Notes: generated by a model from the sequence alone, not told the origin. DNA of 62,903 nt, filler included, from Reclinomonas americana ATCC 50394 (GCA_048213135.1; 22 parts of 22 records of this genome joined end to end with filler, not necessarily neighbours in it), one strand, 5' to 3'. Positions 343 to 62,903 are shown, counted from the first letter of the whole stretch. Numbers and translations: made by a program.

Positions 343-3300
343 ATGTCGGTGAGTTTTATTGATTGCGTGGGGGACGCTTGTTGTTCGCTTGCTTCCCCTC
401 TCCTCTCTCTCTCATCGCTTGTCGCTCACTGTCCTTGTGTGCATCACAGTTCTCTGTGAATGTGAGTGCGGCGCATGATTCGTCGCTGTCGGTGGTGGTG
501 GCGGGCATGTCGGCCATGTCCACTCTCGCAGACTTGCTGCGCGAGGCCACACGCTTGCTGCGTGAGAAGAGTGGAGATGGGGCGATGGAGATTGTGGGGG
601 TGGAGAAACCAGCACCGCATGATGTCGCAGTCGTGGGTGGTGTTCCAATCGCTGGACTTGGCATCAACTCATCCACTCATGTCGTCGTCCGTCTGACACA
701 TTGGGGGGCCCCGGAGTCGAGTGGAGGGAGTGGAAGTGAGAGTGGAAGGTATGTGTTTGTGAATCATCCTCTATGGCAGCATGTAACTCACTCTCAAGTC
801 CTCGCGCAGCAACTCGGAGCGAGTGACTCGGTTTGTTCTGCTTGCCTTCGTCATCCTCCTCTCCCTTCTTGTTCCTCTCTCGGGGTGAGTCTGTGCTGAC
901 TGTGTTCGTGTGCACGCACAGTATGATCAACTTAAATCGCATCAACATGGCCTTTGAGGTGGTGGAGGAGGCCATCCGCCTGCGCTGTCAACGCGCACTG
1001 TCGCATTTCAGTCGTGATCATTCCGACTTTGATGTGCGGGCGTGGGTGCCGAGTTTCACGCCTGCTGGCATGGATGCGGCGGCAGTGAAGGCATGGCGAG
1101 GGCGATATGCGCCAGTCATTGGATGGCAGGTCAAGTTGTTCGAGGAGAAGCAGCCGGTGGTGTTGGCCTGGCGTGCTGCATTCGACGCCGAATCCTCGTC
1201 CGACCCTCCGTGTGACGGTTTCGATACGACAGCACTAACCTCCATCATGCTGAATGGTGGTTTTGTTGAGGATGACGGTCACGAGCTGCTGCTGATTGAC
1301 GATGCTGATGAGCGGAAGGCCGTGGAGGAGCTGAATGATGTGAGGAAGGGATTGGCTCACAAGGACCTCGTGCTGACGGATGCCACTGTACAGCATTACA
1401 CTGGCGACGGTGGTGTTTTGCTCTCCATCCTCTCTCGACTGCAATTGATGGTTGATGAGCATGCTCGATATTCTGCTCGTATCTGTGAGGCACGCCACGT
1501 CGAACACTTCATCAGCACATTCGAGGAGCGACTGCATCGACTGGCAATGCGCGAGCTCTCTTTCTACCAAGAGGACGAGAGTGTGCGCAAGGACATGCAG
1601 ATGTATGTGCCGCTGCTGTGCTCACGTGAGCGTGATGTCTCGTCGAGAGACAAGATGACGGATCTGTTGACGGAGGTGGATGTCTTCCTCTCCGACACCA
1701 ACACCACGCAGCGTGTGTTGGTGCTGTTAGGCAATAGTGGAGCCGGCAAGACTAGCACCGTGTCGGTGCTGGCCGAGCGAGCATGGCGACAGTGGCAGAC
1801 GAGAGAGAGTCAACGAGTGCCGGTGCGTGTGCCTCTTGGTGCACTGCGCAATGCCGACGAGCGATTGTTGGAGGAGGCACTTGAACGACTGTCACCCGAG
1901 TTGGGATTCAGCGAGTCGGATGTACGACGGTTGAAGGAGGAGCCATTGCTGTTGTTGCTTGACGGGTACGACGAGTTGTATCGTGGCGTGAATGTGTTTG
2001 TCAAGAACCAACTCGATGTGTGTCGTGATATGAAGGTGATTATCACTTGTCGAGGTGATTACGCACTGACGGCACTGGGTGGTGTTGCGCAGTATCGACG
2101 GTACTTTGCACCAGTGGATGCACGCGGACAGTTGCGCATGCAACAGCTGATGGTGCGACACATTTCACCGTTCAACATGGAACAGATTGAGGAGTACTTT
2201 GAGCGCCTGGTGCAAGTGGTCGGTGATGACGATGACGATGACGGTGAGGTGCGATGGTCGACTGCCGAGGAGTACATTTGTGCACTGATGAGTGTACATG
2301 GACTGGATGCACTAGTGTCGAATCCGTTCCTGCTGGCAGTGGTGGCTCGTGTGTTGCCGCAGTTGGTGGCAAGTGGAGTGCAGCGACCGACTCGGCGTGA
2401 TGTGTTCGACCGATTCATCCGACAGTGGATTGAGAGGGAGCAGGAGAGGCAGACGCGTCTCGGTGCGGAGCGTGTGCCGAGTGTGGAGATGTGTTTGGCG
2501 TTCTGTGAGGGACTGGCACGGTTGATGCACGAGAGGAATGTGGTGCGTGTGTCTGTGACGGAGAGACGGTTAGGTGATGAGGAGGGTGACTTTGGTGGTG
2601 CGCCACTCGCCTTGCGACGAGTGGAGGAGGGAGTGTTTGACAAGTTCCTCGGTTACAAGAACCAGCATGTGCGTGTGTGCTGTCCGATTGTACGACGGTA
2701 TGGAACAAGTCAGTGGGGATTCGTGCATCTGTCTTTGCTGGAGCACTGTGTGACACGGCATGTGTGTGCATGGGAGGCGTGGGATGAGGAGAGAAGATTG
2801 ACGATGTGCACCGGCATGTGCTGGCAGTGCGATTGCTGAATGATCGACCGTCGTTGGTGGAGCAGATGGCCGAGGTGGTGCGACGATCTCCTGCGCTGCA
2901 AGCGAGACTGTGGGAGGTAATTGAGATATCACGGGAGGTGGATGAGGAGCGAGTGGCGAAGACAGCCGCGAATGCAGCGACGGTGTTGTGTGTGGCGCAA
3001 GTGTCGTTCAGTGGGCGCGATTTGTCGGGTGTGCGAGTGAGAGGTGCGGATTTGAGGGATGCGGCGATGCAGAGGACAGTGTGGAGGGGGGCGGACTTGC
3101 GAGGGGTGAATGTGTGCATGGCGTTCGCGAGGGAGGCGGATTTCAGAGGGGCGGATGTAACGGGGGTGAAGTGGCCGAGGAAGCCGATGGAGGGGCACAC
3201 GGAGGAGGTTAAGTCTGTTGCCGTGACACCCGATGGTCAGTACATTCTGAGTGGCAGTAAGGACAGGACTGTACGGGTGTGGTCGGTGGCAAGTGGCGAG

Positions 3301-6120
3301 GAAGTGCGCCGACTGTATGGCCACACGGGTCCGGTGCATGCAGTAGCAGTGACACCCGATGGTCAGTACATTGTAAGTGGTAGTGAAGACAAGACTGTAC
3401 GGGTGTGGTCGGTGGCAAGTGGCGAGGAGGTGCGCCGACTGGAAGGCCACACGTGGGAGGTGTGGGCAGTGGCGGTGACACCCGATGGCCAGCACATTGT
3501 AAGTGGCAGTCACGACAAGACTGTGCGATTGTGGTTGCTGGCAAGTGGCGAGGAGGTGCGCCGACTGGAAGGCCACACGAGTGAGGTGCATGCAGTGGCA
3601 GTGACACCCGATGGTCAACACATTGCAAGCGCCAGTGGGGACAAGACTGTACGGTTGTGGTCGGTGGCAAGTGGCGAGGAGGTGCGCCGACTGGAAGGCC
3701 ACACGAGTGTGGTGTATGCAGTGGCAGTGACACCCGACGGCCAGCACATTGTGAGCGGAGGTGGAGACCAGACTGTGCGAGTTTGGTCCCTGGCAAGTGG
3801 CAAGGAGGTGCGCCGACTGGAAGGCCACACGAGTGGGGTGCATGCAGTGGCAGTGACACCCGATGGCCAGCACATTGTGAGTGGCAGTGATGACAAGACT
3901 GTTCGAGTGTGGTCGGTGGCATGTGGCGAGGAGGTGCGCCGACTGGAAAGCCACACGAGGGAGGTGTGGGCAGTGGCAGTGACACCCGATGGCCAGCACA
4001 TTGTGAGTGGCAGTAAGGACAATACAGTACGGGTGTGGTCGGTGGCAAGTGGCGAGGAGGTGCGCCGACTGGAAGGCCACACGAGTGAGGTGCATGCAGT
4101 GGCAGTGACACCCGATGGCCAGCTTATCGTGAGTGGCAGTTTGGACGGGACAGTGCGGGTGTGGTCGCTTTCAAGTGAGTACGACGTGTGCCGACTAGAA
4201 GGCCACATGGATGCGGTGCTTGCAGTGACAGTGACACCCGATGGCCAGCATATTGTGAGTGGCAGTATGGATAATACTGTGCGATTATGGTCGGTGGCAA
4301 GTGGCGAGGAGGTGCGCCGACTGGAAGGCCACATGAGTGAGGTGTGGGCAGTGGCAGTGACACCCGATGGCAAGCTTATCGTGAGCGCCAGTGGGGACAA
4401 GACTGTACGGTTGTGGTCGGTGGCAAGTGGCGAGGAGGTGCGCCGACTGGAAGGCCACACGGGTGTGGTGTATGCAGTGGCAGTGACACCCGACGGCCAG
4501 CACATTGTGAGTGGCAGTGATGACAAGACTGTACGGGTGTGGTCCCTGGCAAGTGGCAAGGAGGTGCGCCGACTGGAAGGCCACACGAGTGGGGTGCATG
4601 CAGTGGCAGTGACACCCGATGGCCAGCACATTGTGAGTGGCAGTGATGACAAGACTGTTCGAGTTTGGTCGGTGACAAGTGGCGAGGAGGTACGTCGACT
4701 GGAAAGACACACGAGTGGGGTGTGTGCAGTGGCAGTGACACCCGATGGCCAGTATATTATGAGTGGCAGTTGGGATGAGACTATACGGGTGTGGTCGGTG
4801 GCAGGTAGCGAGGTGGTGCGCCGACTGGAAGGCCACACGAGTGGGGTGTGTGCAGTGGCGGTGACACCCGATGGCCATTACATTGTAAGTGGCAGTGGGG
4901 ACGAGACTGTACGGATGTGGTCGGTGGCGACTGGCGAGGAGGTACGTCGACTGGAAGGACACACGAGTGGGGTGCTTGCAGTGGCAGTGACACCCGTTGG
5001 TCAGCACATTGTGAGTGGCAGTTGGGACGAGACTGTACGGATGTGGTCGGTGGGAAGTGGCGAGGAGGTGCGCCGACTGGAAGGCCACACGAGTGAGGTG
5101 CATGCAGTGGCAGTGACACCCGATGGCCAGCATATTGTGAGCGCCAGTGGGGACAGGACTGTGCGATTGTGGTCGTTGGCAAGTGGCGAGGAGGTGCGCC
5201 GACTGGAAGGCCACACGAGTGTGGTGTATGCAGTGGCGGTGACACCCGATGGCCAGCACATTGTGAGTGGCAGTCATGACGGGACTGTACGGGTGTGGTC
5301 GGTGGCAAGTGGCGAGGAGGTACGCCGACTGGAAGGCCACACGCGTGAGGTGTGGGCAGTGGCAGTGACACCCGATGGCCAGCACATTGTAAGTGGCAGT
5401 CACGACAAGACTGTGCGATTGTGGTTGCTGGCAAGTGGCAAGAAGGTCCGCCAGTTGGAGGGCCACACGTGGGAGGTGTGGGCAGTGGCGGTGACACCCG
5501 ATGGCCAGCACATTGTGAGTGGCAGTAAGGACAAGACTGTGCGATTGTGGTTGCTGGCAAGTGGCGAGGAGGTGCGCCGACTGGAAGGCCACACGTGGGA
5601 GGTGTGGGCAGTGGCGGTGACACCCGATGGCCAGCACATTGTGAGTGGCAGTATGGACAATACAGTACGGGTGTGGTCAGTGGCAAGTGGCGAGGAGGTA
5701 CATCGGCTGGAAGGCCACACCAGTTGGGTTCTTGCAGTGGCAGTGACACCGGATGGTCGCTACATTGTGAGTGCATGTCGGGACAAGATTTTACGGGTGT
5801 GGTCGGTGGCAAGTGGCAAGAAGGTCCGCCAGTTGGAGGGCCACACGAGTAACGTTAATGCAGTGGCAGTGACATCCGATGGCCAGCACATTGTGAGTGG
5901 CAGTTCTGACAAGACTGTACGGGTGTGGTCGGTGGCAAGTGGCTCTGAGGCGCACCGACTAGAAGGCCACACTAGTGGGGTGCTTGCAGTTGCAATGACA
6001 CCCAATTACAAAGACATTTTCCCGCCTTGGAGTATTTCGCTTCTTGTGCGCCTTCGTGAGGAAATGCTCAAGCGTGTAATCGGCTCCTTCCTGCCTGATT
6101 TCGCCGATGTAATTCGGTGA
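343..6120 (+). CDS. NLR-like STAND protein, copy 1 (Ubl - HEPN-like - NACHT - pentapeptide - 22 WD40), interrupted by a frameshift near 2802; split gene or pseudogene
   Basis: Predicted exons 343-348, 450-748, 810-830, 922-2839 (stop), with the WD40 frame continuing 2806-6120. Walker A GNSGAGKT, Walker B LLLLDGYDE, sensor-1 IITCR, NPFLL, winged-helix FVHLSLLEH, pentapeptide ADLRD/ADLRG/ADFRG, then GH...W repeats. Alignment with copy 2 shows a 7-nt deletion at the frame switch. Confidence 0.9.
450..700 (+). other. N-terminal ubiquitin-like (beta-grasp) domain exon of NLR copy 1
   Basis: MS|FSVNVS...STLADLLREA...LGINSSTHVVVRL resembles the ubiquitin pattern (MQIFVK...TLSDYNIQKESTLHLVLRL). Copy 2 reads KLKTLGINSSIHLVVRL. 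Confidence 0.6.
923..1500 (+). other. HEPN-like (DZIP3/Swt1-type) putative RNase effector domain of NLR copy 1
   Basis: Helical region with FDTTALTSIML followed by R-x4-H (RKGLAH, 1343-1360). The paralog has the canonical RNELVH (11122-11139). Confidence 0.65.
3187..6003 (+). repeat. Tandem array of 22 full plus 1 partial 126-bp (42-aa) WD40 repeats
   Basis: Unit EGHTxxVxAVAVTPDGQHIVSGSxDxTVRVWSVASGEEVRRL, counted directly. DNA is nearly identical between units. Confidence 0.97.
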
Positions 6121-8244
6121 CAATTACGACTGCGTGCTTGCAATGTCCGTCTTGTTGTTGCATTGAGTTGATCGATAATGCGGATACGCATGTGATCCTT
6201 GCGCTCATCTTACGTGTCGTGGGCATTGATCGAGCTGCACAAGGTATCCTACTCGTTACCCGCTTCCTGTGTGCAGAGTAAGCTCAGCTATCTGACAAAG
6301 CACTACAGGTTTTTTGCCGTTGCCTCTGGCTGTATCTGCAGTCGATAACGGTGATCATTGGTCAAGTTTTCCGTAACACTGCGGGGAAGTCGATATTGTC
6401 AGGCGTGTCGTCTTCATCACTTCGCGTGTATTCGACAGCAATGCTTCATCCTCATATCATTGTAAACATTTGATGGGAATGCGTTCTTCGAGTTCCTGAA
6501 GCACATATGCGTCGTAATTTACTGGCAGGAGATGATACAAGAGTTGTCACTAGATCCCGACGAGTGCGCGTGTGATCACTGTGCAGTGGCTGATGGGAAT
6601 CGCGTGTTATGATTTCGCGGCGCGGATGTCGTTTGACTTGCTGTGCCGGCGACACGTGCGACACCGCGCCAATGTTCTTGGCGTGAGATGACACTGCGAA
6701 AAGTGTATTCTGGGCCTTTGTCGTTGACGCATGATCTCGAAAGCAAGGAATAGCAGTGGCAGTGAATGCCTGCGTGGTTCAGCGAGCATCATGAACGTGC
6801 AATATAGTTACTTATCCACTTCATGTATCCTCCACAATGAGAGAGACAAAGGAGACTCAAAACGCAGGAACACAACAAGTGGCAGACACAGAATCACACT
6901 CACAAAAACAATCACAATCATGCCGCAGTCACGATGGCGCGTGTTCATGCGGGCTGCGACAGTTCCGAGACGTCGGTGCTCAACTGAATGGTGGGCATGC
7001 GACTGTACATGCAGGCGGCCACTCCATGTTTTGGTCGAGTACACCAGAGACATCAATCGCATGATCGAGCATACCTCAAGCGTGGTCATGCTCACACTGC
7101 AACCGGCGTTGCATGACGGGAAAGAGAGAGAGAGAGAGAGGAGGACGAAGAGAGAGAGAGAGAGAGAGAGAAGAGAGAGAGAGAAGAAGAGAGAAGAAAT
7201 AGAAGAAGAGAGANNNNNNNNNNNNNNNNNNNNNNNNNNNNNNNNNNNNNNNNNNNNTTAATTAATTAANNNNNNNNNNNNNNNNNNNNNNNNNNNNNNN
7301 NNNNNNNNNNNNNTCTCTGTCTCTCTCTCTGTCTCTCTCTCTCGCTCTCCTTCCCTCCACCAACATTCGCCATAGCGTCCCTCCCCACTCGAAAATGATA
7401 TTCTCTCTCACTCCATTTCTCACCCCACATATTCACAATGGCCAATGACCAGACGTATCCCAGAAAGTATGAGAGGGATTCTCCACATTTCAGGCTTTCC
7501 TCTTTTTCACACGACCTCTCTCTCTCTCTCTGAATTCCCGTGTATCACGCTTATCATCCAAGCACGCGGTTCAACTGAGAACGCACACCATGAAATGTGA
7601 TCAAGAAAAGTGGATAGAGAGATATTGTGGTGGAAAAGAGAGTGAAGGAGAACATTGGGTGTGCGTGGATGAATGGATACAAGAGAGAAACACGGAGATG
7701 ACGAAATGAGACGAACAAAGAGCAGCAGGAACGAGAGAAAGCGAAAGCATGAGAGCACGAGAGCGACGGTGATGAGACGAAGAGAGACAACCACACACGG
7801 ATGGAGGATGCAGAGATATGCATGACAGACCACGAAAACTGAGCAAGAATACGCGCGCACACAGACGACGATCACACTCCCAAAGACCAAGGAGGTGAGA
7901 GTCGACGCCGAGAACCAGGGAAAAGGAGGAAATAAGGGAAAGACAGGAAGGAGAATGCAACGGATGGAAATGGAGGGAGATGCAAGAGGCTGCTTTCTCA
8001 CGCTAGGAGAGGAAGAGAGAAATAGAGAAGATTCAGGAGGAGACAGAAGGGATGAGAGGGGACGGAGAGGGGAAAAAAGGACAGGATGTCAACACGATAT
8101 GCACGGTGATGGAGACGATGAAGGCGATATGCAGAAAGAGACGAACCAACGGCACGTACACATGCATACACGCGACAGCAAGCACTCGAAAATGACGGAG
8201 GAAAGAAAACAGAAGATGAGGAAGAAGGAGAGAGAGGAGAGGGC

Positions 8245-8685
8245 GGAGAAGGAGAAGCACGTGTGCGTGTCCAGGCAGTATCACAAATGAGGTGAAAAGG
8301 GACGGAGAGCGGAGTGAGAGAGAGGAGAACCCTACAAGAACAAGCCCGACAGAGAGCAGCTCAGTGCGACAAGCATGTGTGTGGCAATGGTGATTCGCAG
8401 AGACGGAGATGTAAGACACAAGGGAGAGAAGATGAAGGGACAAGTACGCAGAAAGGGATGCAAATGGATGAAGGGTGGAAGTGGAGAGAAGAGTGGAGAG
8501 CGAGAGAGGAAAGGGTGGAGAAGGAGAAGCACGTGCGCGTGTTCAGGCAGTATCACAAATGAGGTGAAAAGAGACGGAGAGCGGAGTGAGAGAGGGGAGA
8601 ACCCTGCAAGAACAAGCCCGACAGAGCAGCTCAGCGCGACAAGCATGTGTGGCACAATAATGATCAGAGACGGAGATGCAAGACG
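8245..8685. repeat. Two ~170-bp direct repeats (~8245-8418 and ~8516-8684) in a purine-rich spacer
   Basis: GGAGAAGGAGAAGCACGTG...GACGGAGATG occurs twice. The paralogous region (~16640-16815) has one copy. Confidence 0.8.
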
Positions 8686-9450
8686 AAGGGAGGGAGAAGG
8701 GGCGAGTGCGAGAGAGAGAGAGAGGAGAGTGGGAGGGGGACGATGAACAAATGATGTATATGTGGGTGGGGGGAAGAGAGAGTAGGATCAGGACGGAGAG
8801 GCACACACGGGAAATGAATACAGGGAACACATGTGAAAACAATGCAAGACAACAGGCAAAAAGTGAAAGAGAGGCGCACGCATGCGGAAAGAGCAGGATG
8901 AGAGGAGAATGTGAGTGAATGAGAATGGATGCGAGGAGGATAAGCAGCGAGTACGCACGAAATACGGGAGGTGAGGGAAGCGGAGGAAGAAAAGGACGAT
9001 GTGAGTGATTCACACACACGGATGCGATTCGTACAAGGTATACAGACAAGCACGCACACGCGAGATGATGAGCACCCAAAGAAGGAAGAGAAGAGAGAAG
9101 AGAGTGTGTGAGAGAGAGAACGAGAAACGGAAGAGGGTGTTGATCAATCACGTCACACATGCGCGGTGCGCTCACACGAATCAATGACACGCATACATGC
9201 ACGCCGAGGAGGGTGAAGAGAGAGAGAGAAGAGAGCGCGAGAATGTGATCAATCACAACGAGAATGCAGCGCACATACGCACAGAGGCAAACAACGAGAC
9301 GCACATGCACATGCGCACGCGCAACAATGTTCACTCGGAGGAAAAAGAAGAGAGGGGAGAGAGAGAGGAGAGAGAAGGATTCATTTCTGCGTTCAATGCA
9401 CACTACGCGAAGAATTCTCTCCCTCTCTTTCTCACTCGCTCGCTCACTCG

Positions 9451-9493
<43 letters not shown>

Positions 9494-9694
9494 CGTCGTT
9501 ACCNNNNNNNNNNNNNNNNNNNNNNNNNNNNNNNNNNNNNNNNNNNNTTAATTAATTAANNNNNNNNNNNNNNNNNNNNNNNNNNNNNNNNNNNNNNNNN
9601 NNNAGAAGGAAGGTAAGTACGTTACTTCTTCGTTCGTTACTACGTACACACACACGACGAACGTACTACTCTCCTCTCTCTCTCCCCCCCCCTC

Positions 9695-9739
<45 letters not shown>

Positions 9740-10057
9740 CACACACACACACACACACCATTCACGCAACAACGAATCGAACTCGACTCCTTTCGCCTCC
9801 CACGTCCCTCTCTCCCTCACACCCCGCACTCTCTTCCTCACTCATCCATGACACGTGGCACAGCAGGCGACCATCAAACACGTGCGTGCTGCACAAAGAA
9901 AGATACGTCGGGTGTCCCGCATGACATTGACGATCTCACACGCACAGCACAACGCACACCGCCACGAGAACAAGCCGACTGTCTGTGTGAGACGTGTGAG
10001 CAACAAGGTACATCGTGCTGAAGAGCGAGAAGAGAAGCCAAGAATTGCAACGAGAAG

Positions 10058-13000
10058 ATGTTGGTGAGTTGTATTGATTGAGTGGGGGACGCTTGTTGTT
10101 CGCACGCTTCTCCGTGTCTTCTCTCTCACTCGTCGCTTGTCACTCACTGCCTTTGTGTGTGCGACAGTTCTCTGTGAATGTGAGTGCGGCGCATGATTCG
10201 TCGCTGTCGGTGGAAGTGGCGGGCATGTCGGCCATGTCCACTCTGGCGGACTTGCTGCGCGAGGCCACTCGCTTGCTGCGCGAGAAGAGTGGAGATGCGG
10301 GAATGGAGATTGTGGGAGTGGAGAAGCCCGTGCCGTATGACTTGGAGGATGCGACTGTGACGAAGCTGAAAACACTCGGCATCAACTCATCAATACACCT
10401 TGTTGTCCGTCTGACACTTGGCGTGGCGCTACAGCCGAGTGGAGGGAGTGGAAGGCATGTGTGCTGGATGCTTGCGAATCATGTCACTGCGCCAAATATG
10501 CAGCTCACTCTCGCTCCTTCGCACAGCAACTCGGAGCGAATGACTCGGTGTGTTTCTTGCCTTCGTCATCTTCCTCTCTTCTCTTCTTTGTTCTTCCACT
10601 CGGATTGAGTCTGTGCTGATTGTGTTTGTTTGTGCACGCACAGCATGATCAACTTCAATCGCATCAACATGGCCTTTGAGGTGGTGGAGGAGGCCGTGCG
10701 TCTCCGTTGTCAACGCGCGCTGGCTCAGTTCAGTCGCGATCATCCCGACTTTGATGTGCGGGCGTGGGCTTCGGATTTGTGGTTTCCGCGTATCATGCAT
10801 TGTGACTTGTGGAAGTGGGTGCCCTGCTTTGTGTTGGCTGGCATGCACATGCATGAGGCGGCAGTGAAGTCTTGGCGTGGGCGACACGCTCCACTTCATC
10901 CTGGGCGAGTCATGTTGTTTGAGGAGAAGCAGACGGCGGCGTTGGCCTGGCGTGCTGCGTTCGACGCCGATCCATCATCCGACCCTCCGTGTGACGGATT
11001 CGACACAACGGCACTCACGTCCATCATGCTTTTTGGTGGCCTGGTACTCGAGGACGGTCGCAAGGTGTTGTTAACGGATGATGCGGACGAACGAAAGGCG
11101 GTGGAGCTGTTGCGAGTGGTCAGAAATGAGTTGGTCCACGGATCATCGGCATGGAACGAGGCCGGTGTGCAATTGTATCTCGGTGACGGCGGTGTGTTCC
11201 TCTCCTTCCTCGGCAAGCTGCGCCTTCCTGTCGATGCAGTCGCCAGATTTGCGACGCGGATTCGCGATGCGCGCCATCTCGACTTTAACGTCAGCACATT
11301 TGAGGAGCGACTCTATCGACTGGCGGCGCGTGAGCTCTCATTCTACCAGCACGACGAGAGTTTGCGCAAAGGCATGCAGATGTATGTTCCACTGCTGTGC
11401 TCACGCGATCGTGACGTCTCATCGAGGGAGAAGATGATGGATCTGTTGACGGAGGTGGATGTTTTCCTCGCCGACGCCAACACCACGCAGCGTATGCTGG
11501 TGCTCTTTGGCAACAGTGGGGCCGGCAAGACCACCACCATGTCGATGCTGGCCGAGCGAGCGTGGCGACAGTGGCAGACAAGAGAAAGCAGAAGGGTGCC
11601 TGTTCGTGTGCCCCTTGGTGCTCTGCGCAATGCCGATGAGCGACTGTTGGAGGAGACACTGGAGCGACTGTCTCCCGAGTTGGGATTCAGTGAGTCGGAT
11701 GTGCGACGGTTGAAGGAGGAACCACTGCTGTTATTGCTTGACGGGTACGATGAGTTGTACCGTGGTGTGAATCTGTTTGTCAAGAACCAGCTGGACGTGT
11801 GTCGCGATGTGAAGGTGATTATCACTTGTCGTGGCGATTACGCACTGACGGCACTGGGTGGTGTGCCGCAGTATCGACGGTTGTTTGCACCGATAGATGC
11901 ACGAGGACAGTTGTGCATGCAGCAGTTGATGGAGAGATATATTGCGCCGTTCAGCAAGGAGCAGATTGAGGAGTACTTCGAGCGACTGGTGCAGGTGGGT
12001 GGTGATGATGATGATGACGGTGGAGTGCGATGGTCGACTGCCGAAGAGTACATTCGTGCACTGCAAAGTGTGCATGGACTGGATGCACTGGTGTCGAATC
12101 CTTTCCTGCTAGCAGTGGTGGCTCGTGTGTTGCCGGAGTTGGTGGCGAGTGGTGTACAACGACCGACTCGGTGCGATGTGTTTGACCGATTCATTCGACA
12201 GTGGATTGTGAGGGAACAGGAGAGGCAGACGCGTCTCGGTGCGGAGCGTGTACCGCGGGAGGAGACCTGTTTGGCGTTCTGTGAGGGACTGGCACGGTTG
12301 ATGCATGAGAGGAATGTGGTGCGTGTGTCTGTGTCGGAAAGTCGGTCGTGGGATGATGGTGGAGAGGATGATGACGACTTTGGCGGTGCACCTCTCGCCT
12401 TGCGACGGGTGGAAGAGGGACCGTTTGACAAGTTCCTGGGCGAGAAGAACCAGCATGTGCGAGTGTGCTGTCCGATTGTGCGACGGTATGGGACGACGCA
12501 GTGGGGATTCGTGCATCTGTCGTTGTTGGAACACTGTGTGGCACGCCATGCGTTTGCATGGGAGACGTGGGATGAGGAGAGGAGATTGACAATGCACGAT
12601 GTGCAACAGCATGTACTGGCAGTACGACTGCTGAATGATCGACCATCGTTGGTGGAGCAGATGGCCGAGGTGGTGCGACGATCTCCTGCGTTGCAACCGA
12701 GACTGTGGGAGGTGATTGAGATGTCACGCGAGGTGGATGAGGAGCGAGTGGTGACGGCAGCAGCGAATGCTGCGACAGTGCTGTGTGTGGCACAAGTGTC
12801 GTTCAGTGGCCGTGATCTGTCGAGTGTGCGAGTGAGGGGTGCGGATTTGAGGGATGCGGTGATGCACAGAACGGTGTGGAGAGGAGCGGATATGCGAGGG
12901 GTGAATGTGTGCTTGGCGTACGCGAGGGAGGCGGATTTCAGAGGGGCGGATGTGACGGATGTGAAGTGGCCGAGGGAGCCGATGGTGGGACACGCGGGTT

Positions 13001-13788
13001 GGGTGCGTGCAGTGGCAGTGACACCCGATGGTCAGCACATTGTGAGTGGCAGTGATGACAAGACTGTACGGATGTGGTCTGTGGCAAGTGGCGAGGAGGC
13101 GCGCCAATTGGAGGGCCACACGTTGTCGGTGTCTGCAGTTGCAGTGACACCCAATGGTCAACACATTGTGAGTGGCAGTCGGGATAAGACTGTACGAGNN
13201 NNNNNNNNNNNNNNNNNNNNNNNNNNNNNNNNNNNNNNNNNNTTAATTAATTAANNNNNNNNNNNNNNNNNNNNNNNNNNNNNNNNNNNNNNNNNNNNTC
13301 AGCACATTGTGAGTGGCAGTGGTGACAACACTTTACGAGTGTGGTCGGTGGCAAGTGGCGAGGAGGTTCGCCGCCTGGCAGGCCACACACATGCGGTGTA
13401 TGCAGTTGCAGTGACACCCGATGGCCAGCACATTGTGAGTGGCAGTTCTGATGAGACTGTACGGGTGTGGTCGATGGTAAGTGGCGAGGAGGTGCGCCGA
13501 TTGGAAGGCCACACGAATGCGGTGCGTGCAGTGACAGTGACGCCCGATGGCCATCACATTGTGAGTGGCGGTGATGACAAGACTGTGCGGATGTGGTCTG
13601 TGGCAAGTGACGCGGAGGTGCGTCGACTGGAAGGCCACACGAATAGGGTGAATGCAGTGGCACTGACATCCGATGGCCAGCACATTTTTCAACGTGAGAA
13701 GGCTGTACTTCTTGTGCGCCGTCGTGAAGGACTGCTCGAGCGCATTCTCGGCTCTTTCCTTCCTGATTTCACCGATGTTATTCTGTGA
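10058..13788 (+). CDS. NLR-like STAND protein, copy 2 (Ubl - HEPN - NACHT - pentapeptide - WD40), apparently intact; the WD40 array is broken by an assembly gap
   Basis: Predicted exons 10058-10063, 10168-10454 (GC donor), 10527-10547, 10644-13198, gap, 13299-13788. Motifs RNELVH, GNSGAGKT, LLLLDGYDE, NPFLL, FVHLSLLEH, pentapeptide and WD40 units are in one open frame. C-terminal tail GSFLPDF is shared with copy 1. Confidence 0.9.
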
Positions 13789-14791
13789 TGAGCACAACTG
13801 CGAGCGCGTATGAACCCTCGAATACATGCCAGTTTATTTTTTATGAGGTCACGTGATGTAAACATGCGTGTAATCTTCGCCCTCAAGTTGTATGCCGTGT
13901 GTGTTGATTGACCATCACGAGATAATCCACTCGTTGTCCACTTTCTCTGTTGCAAGAAACCACAGCGACCTGACGATGCACTGCACCGCCTGTTTGCTGT
14001 CGCTTCTGCCTGCATCTTTCGCCGATGAAGGTGACCGTTGATCCAGCTCCCCCTTGACACCGCGGAGGTCGTTGTTGCCAAGCACGCCGTCTTCATCGCC
14101 TCGCATTCATTTTACTGCGATGCGACATCGTCATACCATGTAAGCATTCGACGGAAATGCGTTCTTCGAGTTCCAGAAGCACACATGCGTCGCAATTTAC
14201 TGGCAGGAGATGAAACAAGAGTTGTCACTGGATCCTGACGAGTGTGCGTGCAGTGGCTGATAGGAATCTCGTGTTATGATTTCGCGGCGCGGATGTCGGT
14301 TGACTTGCTGTGCTAGCGACACATGCGATACCGCGCCATTGTTCTTTGCGTGTGACGAAACTGTGAGTAGTGTATTGTGAGCCTCTGTCGTTGACGCATG
14401 ATCTCGAACGCAAGGAATAGAAGCGGCATTGAATGTCTGCGTGGTTCAGCAACTGCGCAATACGGACCTGCTATTTGTTTACTCATCCATTTCATTATCC
14501 TCCACAATGAGAGAGACAAAGGAGACTCAAAACGCAGGAAGACAACGAGAGGCAGACACAAAATCACTCTCAAAAAACATTCACAAACGCGTCACTGTCA
14601 CGAGGACGCATGTACATGCGGGTTGCGACAATTCCGAGACGTCGGTGCTCAACTGAATGGTGGGCATGTGACAACACATGCAGGCGGCCGTTCCATGCGA
14701 TCGGTCAAGTACACCAGTCACATGGTCGCATGATCGAGCATACCGCAAGCGTGGTCATGCTCACACAGCAACCGGCGTTGCATGACGGGAA

Positions 14792-14843
<52 letters not shown>

Positions 14844-17028
14844 TAGAGAGAGAGAAGAANNNNNNNNNNNNNNNNNNNNNNNNNNNNNNNNNNNNNNNNN
14901 NNNTTAATTAATTAANNNNNNNNNNNNNNNNNNNNNNNNNNNNNNNNNNNNNNNNNNNNAAAAGAGAGAGAGGAAGATAATGAAGGAGAGACAAGAAGGA
15001 GAAGCGCTCTCACGTGGTGAATTTCACCATGAAGACATGGGGTGAAAAGAGTGAAGAGATTCACTCACACTGACATCTCCAGTCAAAAAGACCATCGTAG
15101 CGATCCTTCCACCCACACTGTCACCTGATCACTCACATGGCGTGGTATGAATGATCGAGACAAGCGACCAATTCAAGCTCATGCCCCGCACATGCACACT
15201 CTCTCTCTCTCTTCTCATGTATCTCTGTACTCTTTCCCCTCTGCGTAACAATCAGGGACACAGAGAGCGACATGGAAGAGACAACTCGATGTTGAGATGA
15301 GGGGAGAGCGACAAAGACACATGCTCATCACCGGCATTGGGCGAATAGAAATAAGGGACATCCTGCAAGTAAGGGAGACAGAGAGGGAAGAGACAGACCA
15401 ACAAACCAATAGGCAAAGTATTCCTGCTGGCGATTTACAAAGCAGCGACGAAATGCAGTCTCTCTGTTGATGCCACACATGAAAACAATGCCCGTCGCAT
15501 GTAATGAGAGAACAAACAACAACAACGATCCATGTACGTGAGAGAGATGGAGAAAAACGGACGCAGGTGGACGAGATGGATGGTGCGTTTTGTGCTCCAT
15601 GCATCACCAGCCAAGCCTGTGGAGACAAGGAATAAGCAGGAGAGACGGGAGAAGAGAGAGAGAAGAGATGGAGATGAATGACTCCCACAATGCCACCAAC
15701 GCAGAGAAGGCATAATGGATGCGCTTTCTCCTCTCTCTCTCTCCTTCCCTCCATCACCATACACAATAGCGTCTCTCCCCACTCGCAGATGATGTTCTCT
15801 CTCTCCTCCATTTCTCACCCCACACATTCACGGTCACCAATGACCAGACGTATCCCAGAAGGAATGAGAGATATTCTCCACATTTCAGGCTTTCCTCTTT
15901 TTCACACGACCTCTCTCTCTCTCTCTAAATTCCCATGCACCACGCTCATCTCCCAAGCATGCCGTTCAACAGAAAAAAACACACCATGAAATGTGATCAA
16001 GAAAAGTGGGAAAGAGAGATTGTGGTGGAAAAGAGAGAGAGGGGGGAGGAGGAACATTGGGCGTGGATGGATAGATGGATAAAGGAGAGAAACACAGAGA
16101 TAACGAAAAGAGATGAACAAAGAGCAGCAGGAACGAGGGAAACGAAAGCATGAGTGCACGAGAGATGAGACGAAGAGAGACAACAACACACGGATGGAGG
16201 ATGCAGAGATATGCATGACAGACCACGATAAAATGAGCAAGAATACGCGCACATGGACGACGCTCACACTCCCAAAGAACAAGGAGGTGAGAGTCAATGC
16301 CGATAACCAAGAAGAAAAGAGACAATAAGAATAGATGAAAGGAAAGACAGGAAGGAGAATGCAACGGATGGAAATGGAGGGAGATGCACGAGGCTGCTTT
16401 CTCACGCGAGGAGAGGGAGGGGGGAAAATTCAGGAGGAGACAGAAGGGATGAGAGGGGAAGGAAGAAGGAAAAAAGGACAGGATGTCAATTCAATTTGCA
16501 CGGTCATGGAGACGATGAAGGCGATAAACAGGAAGAGACGAATCAACGGCACGTACACACGAATACACGCGACAGCAAGAACTCGAAAATGACAGAGGAA
16601 AGAAAAAAAGCAGACGAGGAGGAAGGGGAGTGGAGAGGGTGGAGAAGGAGAAGCACGAGTGCGTGTTCATGCAATATCACAAAATGAGGTGAAATGGAGA
16701 TGAAGAGCGGAGTGACAGAGGGTAACCACCCTGCAAGAACAAGCCCGACAGAGAGCGGCTCAGCGCAACAAGCATGTGTGTGGCAATGGTGATCAGAGAC
16801 GGAGATGCAAGACGAAGGGAGAGAGACGGGGCGAGTACGCAGAAAGGGATGTAAATGGATGGAGGGTGGGAGAGGGAGAGAGAGAGAGCGAGAGGGACAA
16901 TGGACAAATGATGCGTGTGTGCAGTAGGNNNNNNNNNNNNNNNNNNNNNNNNNNNNNNNNNNNNNNNNNNNNTTAATTAATTAANNNNNNNNNNNNNNNN
17001 NNNNNNNNNNNNNNNNNNNNNNNNNNNN

Positions 17029-36518: not shown

Positions 36519-45336
<8,818 letters not shown>

Positions 45337-55044: not shown

Positions 55045-58000
55045 TCAGAAGTACGGCTGCAATTCCACGTCCTTCTTGGCCAGCTCCAGCAGCATGGGGT
55101 CGTCGAAGAATTTGTTGATGCTCACATCGTCGCTCATGCCCTGCACCGATACATCGTGTCAGATCGATTGGTTCCCACTGTGCCGTTTCTTTTCCGCCTC
55201 TCTCCTTCTCACTCACCTTTCGTCGACGAGTCTTGACCATAAAGTCGCGTGCCAGCGCCGGTGCCGGGCTCGGCTCCAGCGGGCGCAGAATAATGTTCTT
55301 GTCCAGCGGGTCACCAGGCACCACCGACCAGTGATCAAATGTTGACTGCGCGGGCGGACGAGACAATGAGGCCCAATCGATCCATAACGACACACACACA
55401 CCCACACACACATGCGGCGGCAACGTACCTGGCAGAACGCTTGTCCTTGCGTGTGCACGCGGATATCGGTCTCCAGTCCGAACGAGTCGATCACCGGCAC
55501 GTATGCGTGCATGGTGTACAGCGGCGAGCCGGGCTTCGGCTGGTCGCTGACCACGTGTCCACGACGCCGCTGCAGCACCGTGGTGATGGAGGGCACGCAG
55601 TCCACGGGGCACTCAATTTCGACATAGTACATCGGCTCCATCAGACGCGGCGTGGCCATCAGGAACGCCGAGTAGCACACGCGGCGTGCCGTGGGAATAA
55701 TCTGACCGCCACTGCGATAAATCGGCTCCTGGGCAATGGACGCGTCCAGGATCTTGAACTTGGCACCACGGATGGCTGCGCGCAGAACACAGCATGTCAG
55801 CGACACTACGGGCGCCACACTTTTATCCTACACACACCCCTCAACGCAACGTTCTTCACACAGGGGTCCCTCGCGCGTGGCCCACTGGAAGCCTTGCACG
55901 ATCGAATCGCGCACACCAAACAGCAGCTTCTTGTCGACCTCCGACGGCAGTGTGTCGTCCAGCAGGATGTTGGGCCCTCGTGAGTCGGGCCCGAATGCCC
56001 AGATGGAGCGCGCCGCCAAAATGTCCCACCCGTACTTGGGTTGCTGGAAGAAATCGGCCAGCGTCTTGCGGTCCCAGTTGAGATCCACGAGACCCGTCTC
56101 AATCTCCAGATCGAGTCCCTTTTCCAGTGGTTCCGCAATCATCGTCAGCTTGTTCCTGCGAAACAGAGAGAGAGAGAGAGTCGATGAGTTCATCACGTCG
56201 AATGAATGTCTACACAAACAAAACACAACTTCTTGTTGGGGGTCTCGGCAAAGCACTTGAGCGACGACGTGTCGGCCACAGTCTCGCAGAACGACACGAT
56301 CGGGTCGGCGACCTTGACCTCGATGTCCGAGTACAAGCGACGCAAATCGTGCAGCACGGCATCGAGGTACAACTCGCCGGCACCAAACAGCACGTGCTCG
56401 CCACTCTCCTCGGCCTTGGTGTGCGCCATCGGGTAGCTCTTGCTGACCTTGCGCAGGCCGTCGAGCATTCTTGGCAATTCGGACGGATTCAGCGGCTCAA
56501 TGGCCACCTTGACCACAGACAGCGAGTTGAATTTCAGCGGTCGGAAAATGTGCAGCTCCTCCGTCGCCGACGCCGACACCACCGTCGCCGTCTTCATGAT
56601 GGTCGGGTCGATGCCCTCCAGCAGAACCCAGTTGCCGGCAGGAACACGCGCCACTTCGATGCGGTATCTGCGCGCACAAGGTTGAGGGACACACACACAC
56701 ACACACGACGTGCTCTCCATAGCGAACCGTGCTTCGTAGATCCACACTTTTGAGATGGTGGCCACCGCCATGTCCTCCTCATCAAAGCTCGAGTACGCCT
56801 CTCCCAGCACCTTGACACGCTCGCCGAGACGCGCCGTGCCACTCATCACGCGACCGAGTGCGTCGAATGTTGAGCAGTCGGGCTTGTGATACAGCTTGGT
56901 GATGTTGATGACCAGCGGCCCGGCAGGATCCACTCGTGCCATGGATTGCGCAAAGTCACCATCAAGCGGGCCAGTCCACGTATTGAGCACCTTGGCCGGT
57001 GCACCCACCTCGGGTGACGGCAAGTGGTGCACCATGGTGTCCACGAAACCATTCGGCTGCAAGCAACAACACAACAAAAAGGGTGTGAGAGAGCAGGTAC
57101 ACAGACAGCTGTCAGAAGTGTCACGCACCTCCTGGAAGAACGCCTGCAACACGTGTCGCAACAGCGGCTGCACGTCCTCCTTCAGTTGCGAGTTGCGCAG
57201 ACGCACGCCAATCGAGTCGAGAGTGGTCTTCAACGTGGCCGGCTCCTCGCCGAGCACCTGACTGTACAACTTGTAGATCGGCTCCATCACAAACTGCACA
57301 AATGTGCGCTCGGAGCCCTCTCCACTCGGTGCCTTGCCCACAAAGCCGCGTGTCTCCGCATCGAACCACACATCGCCCCACAATCGTCGCACAAACCTCG
57401 CCAGGTCAAAGTCCACACCTGTGAAAAAAGAACAAGTGAGACTCTCACTTCCACGATGCCTCTCCTCTTCTTCTTCCTTCACTCACCAAACATGTCGACG
57501 TAGATGCGTGCAAACGACGGCAGCGTAAACGACCAGCCGTGCAGACCCGAAGCGAAAATGACATTGCCACGCTCGGGCGACAGGTACATGGCCGAGGCGC
57601 GTGTGGGCGCCAGCTGTGCCACCAACGAGTTCACCTCCTCAATCGTGTGTCGCAGCTTGTGGTAGGCGTCGCGCGGCGGGATCTTCAATTCGCAAATCAG
57701 CCGGTCCACCTTGTTGATGGCCAGCACGATCGGGATGTCCTCCTGCAGCGCCTGCCGAATGCACCGCCGTGTCGTGTTCATCACACCCTCGACGGCGTCG
57801 ACCACCACCACCGCACCGTCGCACAGTCGCAGTGAGGCGGTGACCTCGTCCATAAAGTTGGCGTGGCCGGGTGTGTCGATAATGTTCATGAGGAACGACT
57901 TGTTGCGCAAATCCTGCAGCACCAGCGTCATCGGCATGCACTTGATGCCGAGACCGCGTTGCTGCTCATCCACGCGTGTATCCGTGTAGCGCAGCTGTGC

Positions 58001-58127
58001 GCAGGGAGGAGAAGCACGATGTGTGGCGAGTGAGTGGTGGCGCGATGATGCGGGAGGTGCAATGGGAACCAACCTGCTCGGCCGCCTCACGATCGGTGAC
58101 ATGCGTGTGTCGCACCAGCAGATCCAT
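55045..58127 (-). CDS. SNU114: U5 snRNP GTPase SNU114/EFTUD2, 5' end in gap
   Basis: [86 protein letters not shown]; all introns checked are GT-AG. Confidence 0.98.
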
Positions 58128-58229
58128 NNNNNNNNNNNNNNNNNNNNNNNNNNNNNNNNNNNNNNNNNNNNTTAATTAATTAANNNNNNNNNNNNNNNNN
58201 NNNNNNNNNNNNNNNNNNNNNNNNNNNGT

Positions 58230-61200: not shown

Positions 61201-62903
61201 CAGCGACGCTGAGTGGCAGTGTGAACGCACAAGGTGGACCGACTGTCACTGTGTCGATTGAGTACTCCACATCCATGACGTTTGCGAGTGGCGTATTGAC
61301 TGCATCTGCAGTGTCACCGACCACCGTCAGCGGCAGCATGGACACGCCAGTGACGGGTAGTGCGACGGGCCTGACACCCAACACGCAGTACTACTTCCGC
61401 ATTGTGGCCACCACGAGTGGTGGAGCGCCTGCGCAGTACAGTGGTGCGCTGTCGTTCACCTCGTTCAAGTTGGCCACTGCCACCAGCTCGCCCGCCACTG
61501 TGACGAGCGCCGTGTCGGCGACGCTGGGAGGCAGTGTGAATGCGCAAGGTGGACCGACTGTCACCGTGTCGATTGAGTACTCCACATCCATGACTTTCGC
61601 GAGTGGCGTACTGAGTGCGTCGGCAGTGTCGCCTGCAACCGTCAGCGGCAGTATGGACACGCCAGTGACAGGAAGTGCGACAGGCCTGACACCCAACACG
61701 CAGTACTTCTTCCGCATTGTGGCCACCACGAGTGGCGGAGCGCCTTTGCAGTACAGCAATCCGCTGCCATTCACCGCGTTCAAATTTGCCACTGCCACCA
61801 GCTCGCCCGCGACTGTGACGAGCGCCGTGTCGGCGACGTTGAGTGGCAGTGTGAATGCGCAAGGTGGACCGACTGTCACCGTGTCGATTGAGTACTCCAC
61901 ATCCATGACGTTTGCGAGTGGCGTACTGACTGCGCCGGCTGTGTCACCGACCACCGTCAGCGGTACTACAACTGTGACTGTGACGGGCAGTGCAGCAGGC
62001 CTGTCACCCAACACGCAGTACTACTTCCGCATCGTGGCCACGACAAGCGGTGGAGCGCCTGCGCAGTACAGTGGTGCGCTGTCGTTCACCTCGTTCAAGT
62101 TGGCCACTGCCACCAGCTCATCCGCCACTGTGACGAGCGCCGTGTCGGCGACGCTGGGAGGCAGTGTGAATGCGCAAGGTGGACCGACAGTCACTGTGTC
62201 GATTGAGTACTCCACATCCATGACGTTTGCGAGTGGCGTACTAAATGCATCTGCAGTGTCACCGACCACCGTGAGCGGCAGCATGGACACGCCAGTGACA
62301 GGAAGCGCGACGGGCCTGACACCCAACACGCTGTACTACTTCCGCATTGTGGCCACGACAAGCGGTGGAGCGCCTGCGCAGTACAGTGGTGCGCTGTCGT
62401 TCACCTCGTTCAAATTGGCCACTGCCACCAGCTCGCCCGCGACTGTGACAAGTGCCGTGTCGGCGACGCTGGGAGGCAGTGTGAATGCGCAAGGTGGACC
62501 GACTGTCACTGTGTCGATTGAGTACTCCACATCCATGACGTTTGCGAGTGGCGTACTAAATGCATCTGCAGTGTCACCGACCACCGTCAGCGGCAGCATG
62601 GACACGCCAGTGACAGGTAGTGCAGCAGGATTGACACCCAACACGCAGTACTACTTCCGCATCGTGGCCACCACAAGCGGTGGAGCGCCTGCGCAGTACA
62701 GTGGTGCGCTGTCGTTCACCACATTCAAGTTTGCCACTGCCACCAGCTCGCCCGCCACAGTGATGAGTGCCGTGTCGGCGACGCTGAGTGGCAGCGTGAA
62801 CGCGCAAGGTGGACCGACAGTCACTGTGTCGATTGAGTACTCAACGTCCATGACGTTTGCGAGTGGCGTACTGACTGCATCTGCAGTGTCACCGACCACG
62901 GCC
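58230..62903 (+). CDS. Very large intronless S/T-rich protein with ~15 tandem 105-aa fibronectin type III-like domains; open at both ends
   Basis: One + strand frame of 1558 codons with no stop seen, absent from the ORF track because it runs off the window end. Unit SATLGGSVNAQGG...SIEYSTS...GLTPNTQYYFRIVATTSGG, with an exact 315-bp period from ~59890 on. Confidence 0.9.

Follow-up and report, generated by a model that had tools for sequence, protein, structure and literature searches.

The window examined here is the whole stretch of DNA that was analysed, 62,903 nucleotides from Reclinomonas americana ATCC 50394 (GCA_048213135.1), and the subject of this report is a pair of tandem paralogous genes found in its interval 343-13788. 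On balance, the two genes appear to encode eukaryotic receptors of the NOD-like receptor (NLR) type, belonging to the signal transduction ATPases with numerous domains (STAND), in which a HEPN-like head precedes a NACHT domain, a pentapeptide segment and a WD40 sensor, and a ribonuclease (RNase) switch built on the R-x4-H motif of the head is proposed. These modules are laid out in one long exon, in the order of a helical domain of ~210 amino acids, NACHT, a short pentapeptide segment and a long WD40 array, and an upstream coding exon of ~100 amino acids probably adds a further N-terminal module. Copy 1 occupies positions 343-6120 on the first contig, and copy 2 occupies 10058-13198 with its tail at 13299-13788 on the next contig. 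The DNA of the two copies is 83.6-84.4% identical (blastn), and no third copy was detected in the window (tblastn). A preliminary description of this locus had been made from the sequence alone, and its claims are taken up below where the results bear on them.

The HEPN-like head

The head was delimited in both copies, with the following features:

923..1561, + strand: HEPN-like helical domain of copy 1, 213 amino acids, at the start of exon 3
929-955, 1082-1096, 1220-1237 and 1343-1360, + strand: head motifs of copy 1, respectively N-x-x-R-I-x-x-A-F, AVKAW, FDTTAL and RKGLAH
10645..11340, + strand: HEPN-like domain of copy 2, 232 amino acids, with FDTTAL at 10999-11016 and RNELVH at 11122-11139

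The R-x4-H motif reads RKGLAH in copy 1 (residues 141-146) and RNELVH in copy 2 (residues 160-165). The preliminary description had placed FDTTAL and R-x4-H (RNELVH in copy 2) in both paralogs, and both motifs are indeed read in both copies. In HEPN domains an R-x4-6-H motif stands at the end of core helix 3 and an acidic residue is found in helix 2 (PMC3710099); the residues of the head that are predicted to be catalytic, an upstream aspartate and the R-x4-H motif, are kept.

When the head was screened against Pfam, PF18731 (HEPN_Swt1) was the sole family reported for copy 1 at E<=10 (E=0.1, 13.3 bits), with residues 129-156 aligned to profile positions 74-101, a span which covers R-x4-H. The top two clusters for the head in a protein atlas were Swt1-like HEPN clusters (scores of 0.86 and 0.85, counted as leads only), and the PADLOC model CARF_HEPN matched copy 2 (E=0.034) with the HEPN end of the model, across the motif. 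The preliminary description had named a head of the HEPN_DZIP3/Swt1 kind. Swt1 was the only family recovered by any method, albeit below the Pfam cut-off, while the DZIP3/hRUL138-like HEPN family (PF18738) gave no match at E<=10 for either copy, with the proviso that very weak matches may be hidden by the HMMER filters.

The two-copy alignment of the head was compared by hhalign with 50 PF18731 domains fetched from bacterial genomes (matches in 34/301, 18/301 and 2/5 genomes; seven further PF18731 matches without loci were left out). A score of 29.0 (P=5e-4) was obtained, compared to a mean of 13.1 (standard deviation 2.3, maximum 21.5) for 150 column shuffles and 11.1 for the reversed template. 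In global mode the score was 15.7 against a null of 3.2+-2.6 (maximum 14.0), a value reached by none of 120 shuffles. In an unguided MAFFT alignment with the PF18731 members, four motifs were found to be colinear: N-x-x-R-[IV]-x-x-A-[LF] at the extreme N-terminus, G/K-x-W, D-x-[ST]-A-L (FDTTAL) and E-R-x-x-V-x-E-L-x-x-[VT]-R-[NK]-x-[WL]-A-H. The PF18731 columns conserved at >=90% (D101, E136, R141, A145 and H146) are all represented in copy 1, and D101 of FDTTAL, which aligns with the family aspartate in D-x-[ST]-A-L-L, is found in both copies.

Conservation of the R and H was also apparent between the paralogs. Synonymous divergence (dS) in the C-terminal half of the head is 2.1, compared to ~0.43 in the flanks, with a ratio of nonsynonymous to synonymous divergence (dN/dS) of 0.15, and D, R and H are all kept.

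A number of observations weigh against the proposed reading of the two genes. The score of copy 1 on PF18731 (13.3 bits) does not reach the gathering cut-off of 27.5 bits, copy 2 gave no PF18731 match in the Pfam scan, and on a hidden Markov model (HMM) of the PF18731 members copy 2 scored only 4.7 bits, compared to <=3.4 bits for unrelated proteins. The hhalign probability was only 31.7%. In copy 2 the positions equivalent to E136 and A145 are L and V, and the residue after the conserved R, usually N, D or H, is K in copy 1 (N in copy 2). Only two sequences are at hand, so that a single pairwise comparison underlies the conserved state of R and H. No true relative of the head was found by phmmer among 1.84 billion representatives. 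Structure prediction with AlphaFold 2 (AF2) on the two copies alone was unusable (predicted local distance difference test, pLDDT, 42.5), and the model from a 52-row alignment (pLDDT 69.6, predicted TM-score 0.58) is circular rather than independent evidence because that alignment is dominated by HEPN members. The best Foldseek match of the latter model in the PDB had E=1.1, and its VIA scores to HEPN chains (Z 5.5-6.7 among the 50 rows listed) lie inside the noise band for helical bundles. The frameshift between NACHT and sensor in copy 1, the GC donor of intron 2 in copy 2 and the assembly gap in copy 2, all described below, tell in the same direction.

In both AF2 runs, one of them at pLDDT 42.5, R-x4-H was located at the end of a predicted helix (128-145). 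The VIA rows included 2hsb (Z 6.7, root mean square deviation 3.7, 96 aligned), AbiF 8vz6 (Z 6.5, 6.6, 153 aligned) and the C-terminal domain of yeast Swt1, 4pqz (Z 5.5, 4.9, 122 aligned), and acyl-CoA dehydrogenases and other helical bundles were mixed in at the same Z. The other HEPN rows were Csm6 (4rgp and 6tug) and HepS (9oik), which we take to be HEPN proteins, and YggD (3c8g). PMC3710099 counts the structures 2hsb and 3c8g, together with AbiF and Swt1, as HEPN.

Further searches for the head were negative. The head alignment gave no match among PDB sequences at E<=10 and none in NCBIfam, no homologues of the open reading frame (ORF) comprising head and NACHT were found at near lengths, and in metagenome scans 0 of 199 stretches (head alignment) and 0 of 594 (NACHT part) were confirmed as relatives. 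One phmmer match to the head (E=2.4e-4) was to a repetitive bacterial surface protein with many weak matches and was rejected as spurious.

As the score is below the PF18731 cut-off, the head is labelled HEPN-like, that is a probable divergent member of the superfamily and not a certified member of PF18731. We consider it likely that the head is a HEPN domain, and somewhat less likely that it is catalytically competent. Most likely it belongs, as a highly divergent member, to the Swt1/Abi2 branch of the HEPN RNases, and bacterial PF18731 domains of the Ava_2192 type are nearest to it.

The receptor body and its WD40 sensor

Downstream of the head, the following features were identified:

1712..2206, + strand: NACHT NTPase of copy 1 (PF05729, E=3.9e-9, 37 bits against a cut-off of 26.7)
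1730-1753, 1946-1975 and 2039-2056, + strand: NACHT motifs of copy 1, respectively Walker A, Walker B and IITCRG
3001..3105, + strand: pentapeptide repeats of copy 1 (PF00805, E=1.9e-8)
3223..6003, + strand: WD40 array of copy 1, 22 units of 126 nucleotides, followed by a C-terminal tail with its stop at 6118-6120
11341..13198, + strand: NACHT, pentapeptide and first WD40 units of copy 2, with Walker A at 11509-11532 and Walker B at 11725-11754
13299..13788, + strand: last WD40 units and C-terminal tail of copy 2, on the next contig; the tail is like that of copy 1

The motifs GNSGAGKT, LLLLLDGYDE and IITCRG are intact in both copies, and PF00805 was also matched by the pentapeptide segment of copy 2 (E=1.1e-7). 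With the PF05729 score given above, intact Walker A and B motifs, PF00805 and 22 WD40 stretches in the Pfam scan of copy 1, the full NACHT and WD40 modules of a STAND/NLR architecture, as claimed in the preliminary description, were confirmed.

Tandem Repeats Finder reported 22.1 units with 85% matches in the WD40 array of copy 1, and the mean nucleotide identity among its units is 84%. Variation among the units is concentrated at few sites: at positions 13, 15, 36, 37 and 39, 65 nonsynonymous and 1 synonymous changes were counted relative to the consensus codons, compared to 73 nonsynonymous and 79 synonymous changes at the other 37 positions. These positions, which are predicted to face the ligand, are diversifying. 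Positions 13 and 15 flank the D of S-x-D-x-T, and 36-37 and 39 flank the V after GHT. In HET-E and NWD proteins the selected codon pairs likewise flank a conserved codon; they map to the d-a loop and b-c turn, which belong to the interaction face of the propeller (Paoletti et al. 2007, PMC1805685). The WD40 array of copy 2 is incomplete in the window because an assembly gap cuts it after two WD40 units.

Residues 226-851 of copy 2 were found to be colinear with an ORF of Mycoavidus cysteinexigens (29% identity, E=4e-66) and with tandem ORFs of two Gammaproteobacteria metagenome-assembled genomes (MAGs; 24-26% identity), with E-values from 4e-66 to 1e-52 over all of these. A search with the NACHT region returned 29 relatives at E<=1e-5, which are 25-31% identical (39% in one short match) and have a best E of 4.7e-37; those named are Mortierella, Linnemannia, Mycoavidus, Glomeribacter and Tatlockia, together with one EukProt entry. 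A tree was inferred by quick search from 34 rows, leaving out five of the 29 relatives (P0023, P0032, P0033, P0035 and P0036) and the bacterial ORF L005, the alignment of which was too short. In this tree the two window genes were placed on their own long branch, outside the fungal/endobacterial group and weakly joined to the EukProt entry (83 in the Shimodaira-Hasegawa-like approximate likelihood ratio test), a placement which is not robust. Judged by its sequence, the body is a distant member of the clade known as NACHT-PPR-WD40 (PPR, pentapeptide repeats), which occurs in Mortierellomycota, in their Burkholderia-related endobacteria and in some Gammaproteobacteria.

No HEPN head was found among the 29 body relatives, all of which scored <=3.4 bits on the HMM of PF18731 members. 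The region upstream of the sensor was scanned in 15 of 79 bacterial loci and contained a NACHT match in 14 of the 15; the heads recorded there were TIR (2), Mrr nuclease (1), helix-turn-helix (1) and DUF4062 (1), and a HEPN head was found in 0 of the 15. Among the relatives compared, the predicted HEPN-like head is specific to the two window genes.

The bacterial loci differ in their organisation. Two from Gammaproteobacteria MAGs (L014 and L073) each contain three or four ORFs with a NACHT similar to that of the window genes (E=1e-11 to 1e-34), several of which continue through pentapeptide and WD40. Of the Mycoavidus loci, L015 and L031 each have one full NACHT-pentapeptide-WD40 ORF, and L052 and L077 match only on pentapeptide-WD40, with no NACHT found upstream in L052. 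A ParA-like domain and an Mrr nuclease precede NACHT-pentapeptide-WD40 in L020, and NNH6 and TIR do so in L030. NNH6 and TIR also stand before NACHT and WD40 in L045, where no pentapeptide match was obtained in the scanned upstream part; the pentapeptide residues of the window genes nonetheless align to it. The heads of L020, L030 and L045 illustrate head swapping on this chassis.

Gene models, locus and alternative explanations

The upstream exons and the frame defect of copy 1 were assigned as follows:

343..348, + strand: proposed exon 1 of copy 1, ATG TCG followed by a GTGAGT donor, read from the sequence
349-449, + strand: intron 1 of copy 1, GTGAGT...CAG/TTC, in frame
450..748, + strand: exon 2 of copy 1, an N-terminal module of ~100 amino acids; the acceptor CAG ends at 449 and the donor GTATGT starts at 749
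749-921, + strand: intron 2 of copy 1, AAG/GTATGT...CAG/T ATG, in frame
2800..2839, + strand: frameshift of copy 1, where 7 bp found in copy 2 are missing at 2800/2801
10058..10063, + strand: proposed exon 1 of copy 2, ATG TTG/GTGAGT
10168..10454, + strand: exon 2 of copy 2, with a GC donor (AAG/GCATGT at 10455) and an alternative in-frame GT at 10461

The splicing of both copies is predicted from these signals. Exon 3 of copy 1 opens with T+ATG ATC AAC after the CAG at 921, and exons 2 and 3 join in phase 2; copy 2 keeps the exon layout of copy 1, with GC as the donor of intron 2. In copy 2, the loop that follows helix 1 of the head holds an in-frame insert of 51 nucleotides (~10765-10815). 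As it starts with GT and ends with AG, it may be a small intron; alternatively, it may be inserted coding sequence.

The two copies differ in the 5' half of exon 2 by 10 synonymous and 5 nonsynonymous changes (dN/dS 0.15, binomial P=9e-4), compared to dN/dS of 0.6-1.25 when intron and upstream stretches were treated as pseudo-codons. This marks exon 2 as coding in the frame proposed, and on its splice signals it is likely joined to exon 3. The preliminary description had placed a ubiquitin-like exon ahead of the head; an upstream exon which is coding and splices in frame by its signals was retained, but its likeness to ubiquitin lacks a significant match. No ubiquitin-clan match was obtained for exon 2 at E<=10 in Pfam or NCBIfam, nor any among PDB sequences, and in the protein atlas ubiquitin and Rad60-SLD clusters appeared only at ranks 16 and 22 (score 0.87, a weak lead). 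By eye, the strand/helix pattern and the ...LGINSS-x-H-x-VVRL ending recall a beta-grasp, and the module may be ubiquitin-like. The pairing of a ubiquitin-like domain with HEPN has a precedent in vertebrate sacsin, where the two are joined in one protein (PMC3710099). A PDB sequence match of exon 2 to a designed helical protein (E=1.7) was rejected, as were sub-threshold matches to UGSC and Methyltransf_8, regarded as noise.

In copy 1 a TGA at 2837-2839 terminates the NACHT frame, and the frame of the sensor runs open for 3.3 kb starting at 2788. The joining of NACHT and pentapeptide/WD40 by splicing in this copy, which had been assumed in the preliminary description, was not upheld: the two lie in different frames, separated by the 7-bp deletion. 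A small intron across the frameshift was rejected, as copy 2 is homologous without a break to either side of it and the only GT..AG candidate is 22 nucleotides long. The site is a short direct repeat, and either recent slippage or an error of assembly could account for the frameshift. Copy 2 has a single open frame from 10645 to the assembly gap at 13199-13298.

The window contains 21 gaps (from 7214-7313 to 58128-58227), each composed of 44 N, TTAATTAATTAA and a further 44 N, where TTAATTAATTAA carries stops in all six frames. From this pattern the window is a draft scaffold of ~22 contigs of 1-5 kb, and features which span gaps are not contiguous sequence. The downstream flanks of the two genes are duplicated as well (6246-7188 corresponds to 13925-14859, and 7329-8510 to 15724-16897). 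The duplicated spacers 3' of each copy (7314-9503 and 14960-16928) are purine-rich on the + strand (A+G 67% and 64%), and (CT)n and (CA)n microsatellites are found at contig ends (1-50 and 9680-9760).

Between copy 1 and copy 2, dN/dS is 0.15-0.30 in every module, compared to 0.6-1.25 in the non-coding controls; every module is under purifying selection. The distribution of dS along the pair is uneven. In addition to the value of 2.1 in the C-terminal half of the HEPN-like domain (1223-1561 against 11002-11340), a dS of 0.86 was obtained for the 3' half of exon 2 (621-746 against ~10339-10452), while the flanking NACHT, introns and upstream DNA have a dS of about 0.3-0.45, the upstream DNA being 91% identical. 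This looks like a mosaic, produced either by gene conversion homogenising most of the unit or by a patch from a more distant paralog.

Elsewhere in the window, a SNU114/EFTUD2-like gene for the U5 small nuclear ribonucleoprotein (snRNP) GTPase was identified at 55213-58171 (- strand). Its GTP_EFTU, D2, EFG_III, EFG_IV and EFG_C domains are distributed among four or more ORFs that differ in frame, which points to introns, and its best relatives are 42-67% identical and scattered over plants, fungi and protists. An RRP5-like rRNA-processing gene with S1, S1_RRP5 and OB_RRP5 domains lies at 40482-43121 (- strand). The eukaryotic host assumed in the preliminary description is borne out by these two genes. 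An ORF of 1576 amino acids (58176-62903, + strand), which begins directly behind a gap and is truncated by the end of the window, is full of FN3, PhoD_N and purple-acid-phosphatase-N-like repeats, suggesting a giant repeat protein of immunoglobulin-like fold.

It is unlikely that the head is instead a non-catalytic helical adaptor or regulatory domain, in which the HEPN-like motifs would be chance or relic and signalling would go through partners with no cutting of RNA. Such a domain would agree with HEPN matches that are all sub-threshold, with fold searches that gave no informative match (Foldseek E=1.1, VIA noise band), with body relatives whose helical N-termini have no assigned function (NNH6 in two bacterial ones), and with Swt1 itself, which is probably inactive (PMC3710099). 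It does not sit well with four colinear family motifs rather than one, with the presence in copy 1 of all the most conserved family residues, with hhalign scores exceeding 150/150 local and 120/120 global shuffles, with the convergence of independent methods (Pfam and the atlas) on one Pfam family, or with R and H being kept despite saturated synonymous divergence. A little less unlikely is the possibility that exon 2 lies outside this protein, as a 5' leader, a small ORF or part of another transcript, and that the ATG at 923 (10645 in copy 2) is the start codon. The ATG of exon 3 stands where the bacterial relatives of the head begin, which makes this a live alternative: the HEPN alignment starts at residue 1 of exon 3, in the same column in which the bacterial members start with M-x-I/M-S/T-N, and in both copies the ATG directly follows the proposed acceptor. 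The junction is predicted from the sequence alone, and the donor in copy 2 is GC. Set against this are the purifying selection on exon 2 (dN/dS 0.15, P=9e-4), the absence of a stop of its own before the donor, and the preservation in both copies of splice sites placed so that exon 2 joins exon 3 in phase 2, and of the exon 1 ATG with its GTGAGT donor.

A recent duplication followed by decay of one or both copies into pseudogenes, so that no functional receptor is made, at least from copy 1, is judged improbable. The 7-bp frameshift of copy 1 with a stop 37 nucleotides downstream, the GC donor and 51-nucleotide insert of copy 2, and a draft scaffold with 21 gaps would all fit decay, but selection of the strength given above acts on every module, the 3.3-kb sensor frame of copy 1 is fully open, the frame of copy 2 stays open between 10645 and the gap, and recent slippage in the direct repeat, or misassembly, could explain the frameshift. 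Least probable by far is that these are contigs of a bacterial contaminant or symbiont carrying an ordinary intron-less HEPN-NACHT-WD40 defence gene. The nearest bodies do include bacterial ORFs, HEPN-NACHT is a bacterial theme (bioRxiv 10.1101/2022.07.19.500537), and the main ORF needs no intron from 923 on; however, the same scaffold has the eukaryote-only genes for the SNU114/U5 snRNP GTPase (over at least four frames) and RRP5, coding density is low, the duplicated purine-rich intergenic stretches carry microsatellites, the exon upstream codes for protein and is bounded by canonical splice signals, and the quick tree gives the copies their own long branch, not in a bacterial group. Bacterial contamination was rejected on the eukaryote-only genes, the splice signals and the tree position.

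Proposed mechanism and comparison with known systems

HEPN RNases require two domains to build an active site. If the two genes encode NLR-type receptors with a HEPN-like head, as favoured here, the hypervariable face of the WD40 sensor would bind a non-self or altered-self ligand, and this would release the NACHT switch, with nucleotide exchange and NTP-dependent oligomerisation. Oligomerisation would in turn pair the N-terminal HEPN heads to form a composite R-x4-H RNase site, and the resulting cleavage of RNA would lead to growth arrest, cell death or destruction of invader RNA. This mechanism is proposed by analogy with other STAND receptors and HEPN RNases, an analogy from which oligomerisation, RNase activity and an immune or allorecognition role would all follow.

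A more far-reaching reading is offered tentatively. A non-animal eukaryote may have fitted a bacterial-type NACHT-pentapeptide-WD40 body with a Swt1-type HEPN RNase head and a spliced-on ubiquitin-like module, and the product would be a receptor for suicide or defence that is active and diversifying and cuts RNA. Such a receptor would be the first NLR armed with HEPN from beyond Metazoa and Bacteria, as well as a case of effector swapping on a STAND chassis transferred between domains of life.

The preliminary description regarded the domain combination as undescribed, which was too strong a claim: HEPN heads are found on NACHT in pearl oyster, cnidarians, cephalochordates and bacteria, and the body is found in Mortierellomycota and Mycoavidus. 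NACHT-PPR-WD40 proteins are common to Mortierellomycota and their endosymbiont Mycoavidus (Ciach et al. 2024, PMC11291939). The window genes resemble this clade (Mortierellomycota, Mycoavidus/Glomeribacter) in the order of NACHT, helical region, pentapeptide and WD40 and can be aligned colinearly with it for ~620 residues (identity 25-30%, E-values as low as 4e-66 and 4.7e-37), but they are distant from it, and the N-termini of the relatives compared are TIR, Mrr, helical or short, with no HEPN-like head among the 29 proteins and the 15 bacterial upstream regions scanned.

In the pearl oyster, an N-terminal DZIP3/hRUL138-like HEPN is found on NACHT in >50 genes, with leucine-rich, tetratricopeptide or WD40 repeats behind (PMC9646362), and in cnidarians and cephalochordates a CXorf38-type HEPN occurs with NACHT/DEATH (PMC3710099); HEPN heads are also present in other metazoan death-domain networks. 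The animal HEPN-NACHT receptors and the window genes have in common a HEPN or HEPN-like head with R-x4-H, a NACHT and a repeat sensor, in tandem, expanded and variable families. The window genes differ in that the head is not of the DZIP3 type (only PF18731 was matched, not PF18738), the NACHT body belongs to another, bacterial-like clade with a pentapeptide segment, and there is possibly an extra N-terminal exon.

Bacterial NACHT proteins with HEPN effectors have been described (Kibby et al., bioRxiv 10.1101/2022.07.19.500537), as have bacterial HEPN-STAND-TPR proteins such as Npun_F6454 (PMC3710099). With these STAND/NACHT proteins, and with HEPN-AAA+ proteins of the Ava_2192 type, the window genes share a probable Swt1-clade HEPN directly N-terminal to a P-loop NTPase and the same logic of effector, switch and sensor, and the bacterial PF18731 members compared here are the best sequence match to the window head. 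The window genes, in contrast, are part of a nuclear scaffold of a eukaryote and have predicted introns and an upstream exon that is coding; in their head, helices 1 and 2 are separated by a far longer insert, and the head scores below the Pfam cut-off.

With the fungal HET-E, HET-D and NWD proteins, the window genes share highly similar WD40 units with paired hypervariable positions around a conserved residue. They differ in having a pentapeptide segment and a NACHT nearest to the Mycoavidus/Mortierellaceae clade, not placed in the HET-E clade, and no HET, HeLo, Goodbye-type or other fungal NLR head was found in their Pfam scans.

The KEN RNases of RNase L and Ire1 are switched on by induced dimerisation or oligomerisation. 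A principle common to these and the window genes is proposed, namely sensor-driven assembly leading to an active HEPN RNase. Their switch is a STAND NTPase, not a pseudokinase or kinase, and they have no circularly permuted KEN and no input from 2',5'-oligoadenylate or endoplasmic reticulum stress. The KEN domain is itself a HEPN domain (PMC3710099).

The terms 'HEPN' and 'RNase' have 0 occurrences in the main text of a large survey of fungal NLR effectors (PMC9815663), and a full-text literature search for HEPN, NLR and protist together found nothing. No description of a Swt1-type HEPN on a NACHT-PPR-WD40 body, or in a non-animal eukaryote, was found in the titles, abstract openings and passages of the papers covered, supplements aside.

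HEPN heads on NACHT/STAND proteins and the NACHT-PPR-WD40 body are thus already known, and no new principle is involved; what is possibly new here is a different HEPN subfamily on a bacterial-like body in this eukaryotic lineage, with perhaps a spliced N-terminal module added. Exchangeable death or defence heads on STAND/NLR proteins are an immune logic common to bacteria, fungi, plants and animals. If the head is truly HEPN, the RNase-effector solution would have been assembled again in a third eukaryotic setting, and on a NACHT-PPR-WD40 body known to move between fungi and endobacteria. The value of the pair lies in this evolutionary reach and in its experimental tractability, as it provides a compact test case with one large exon, a clear candidate catalytic dyad and a sensor with textbook hypervariable positions.

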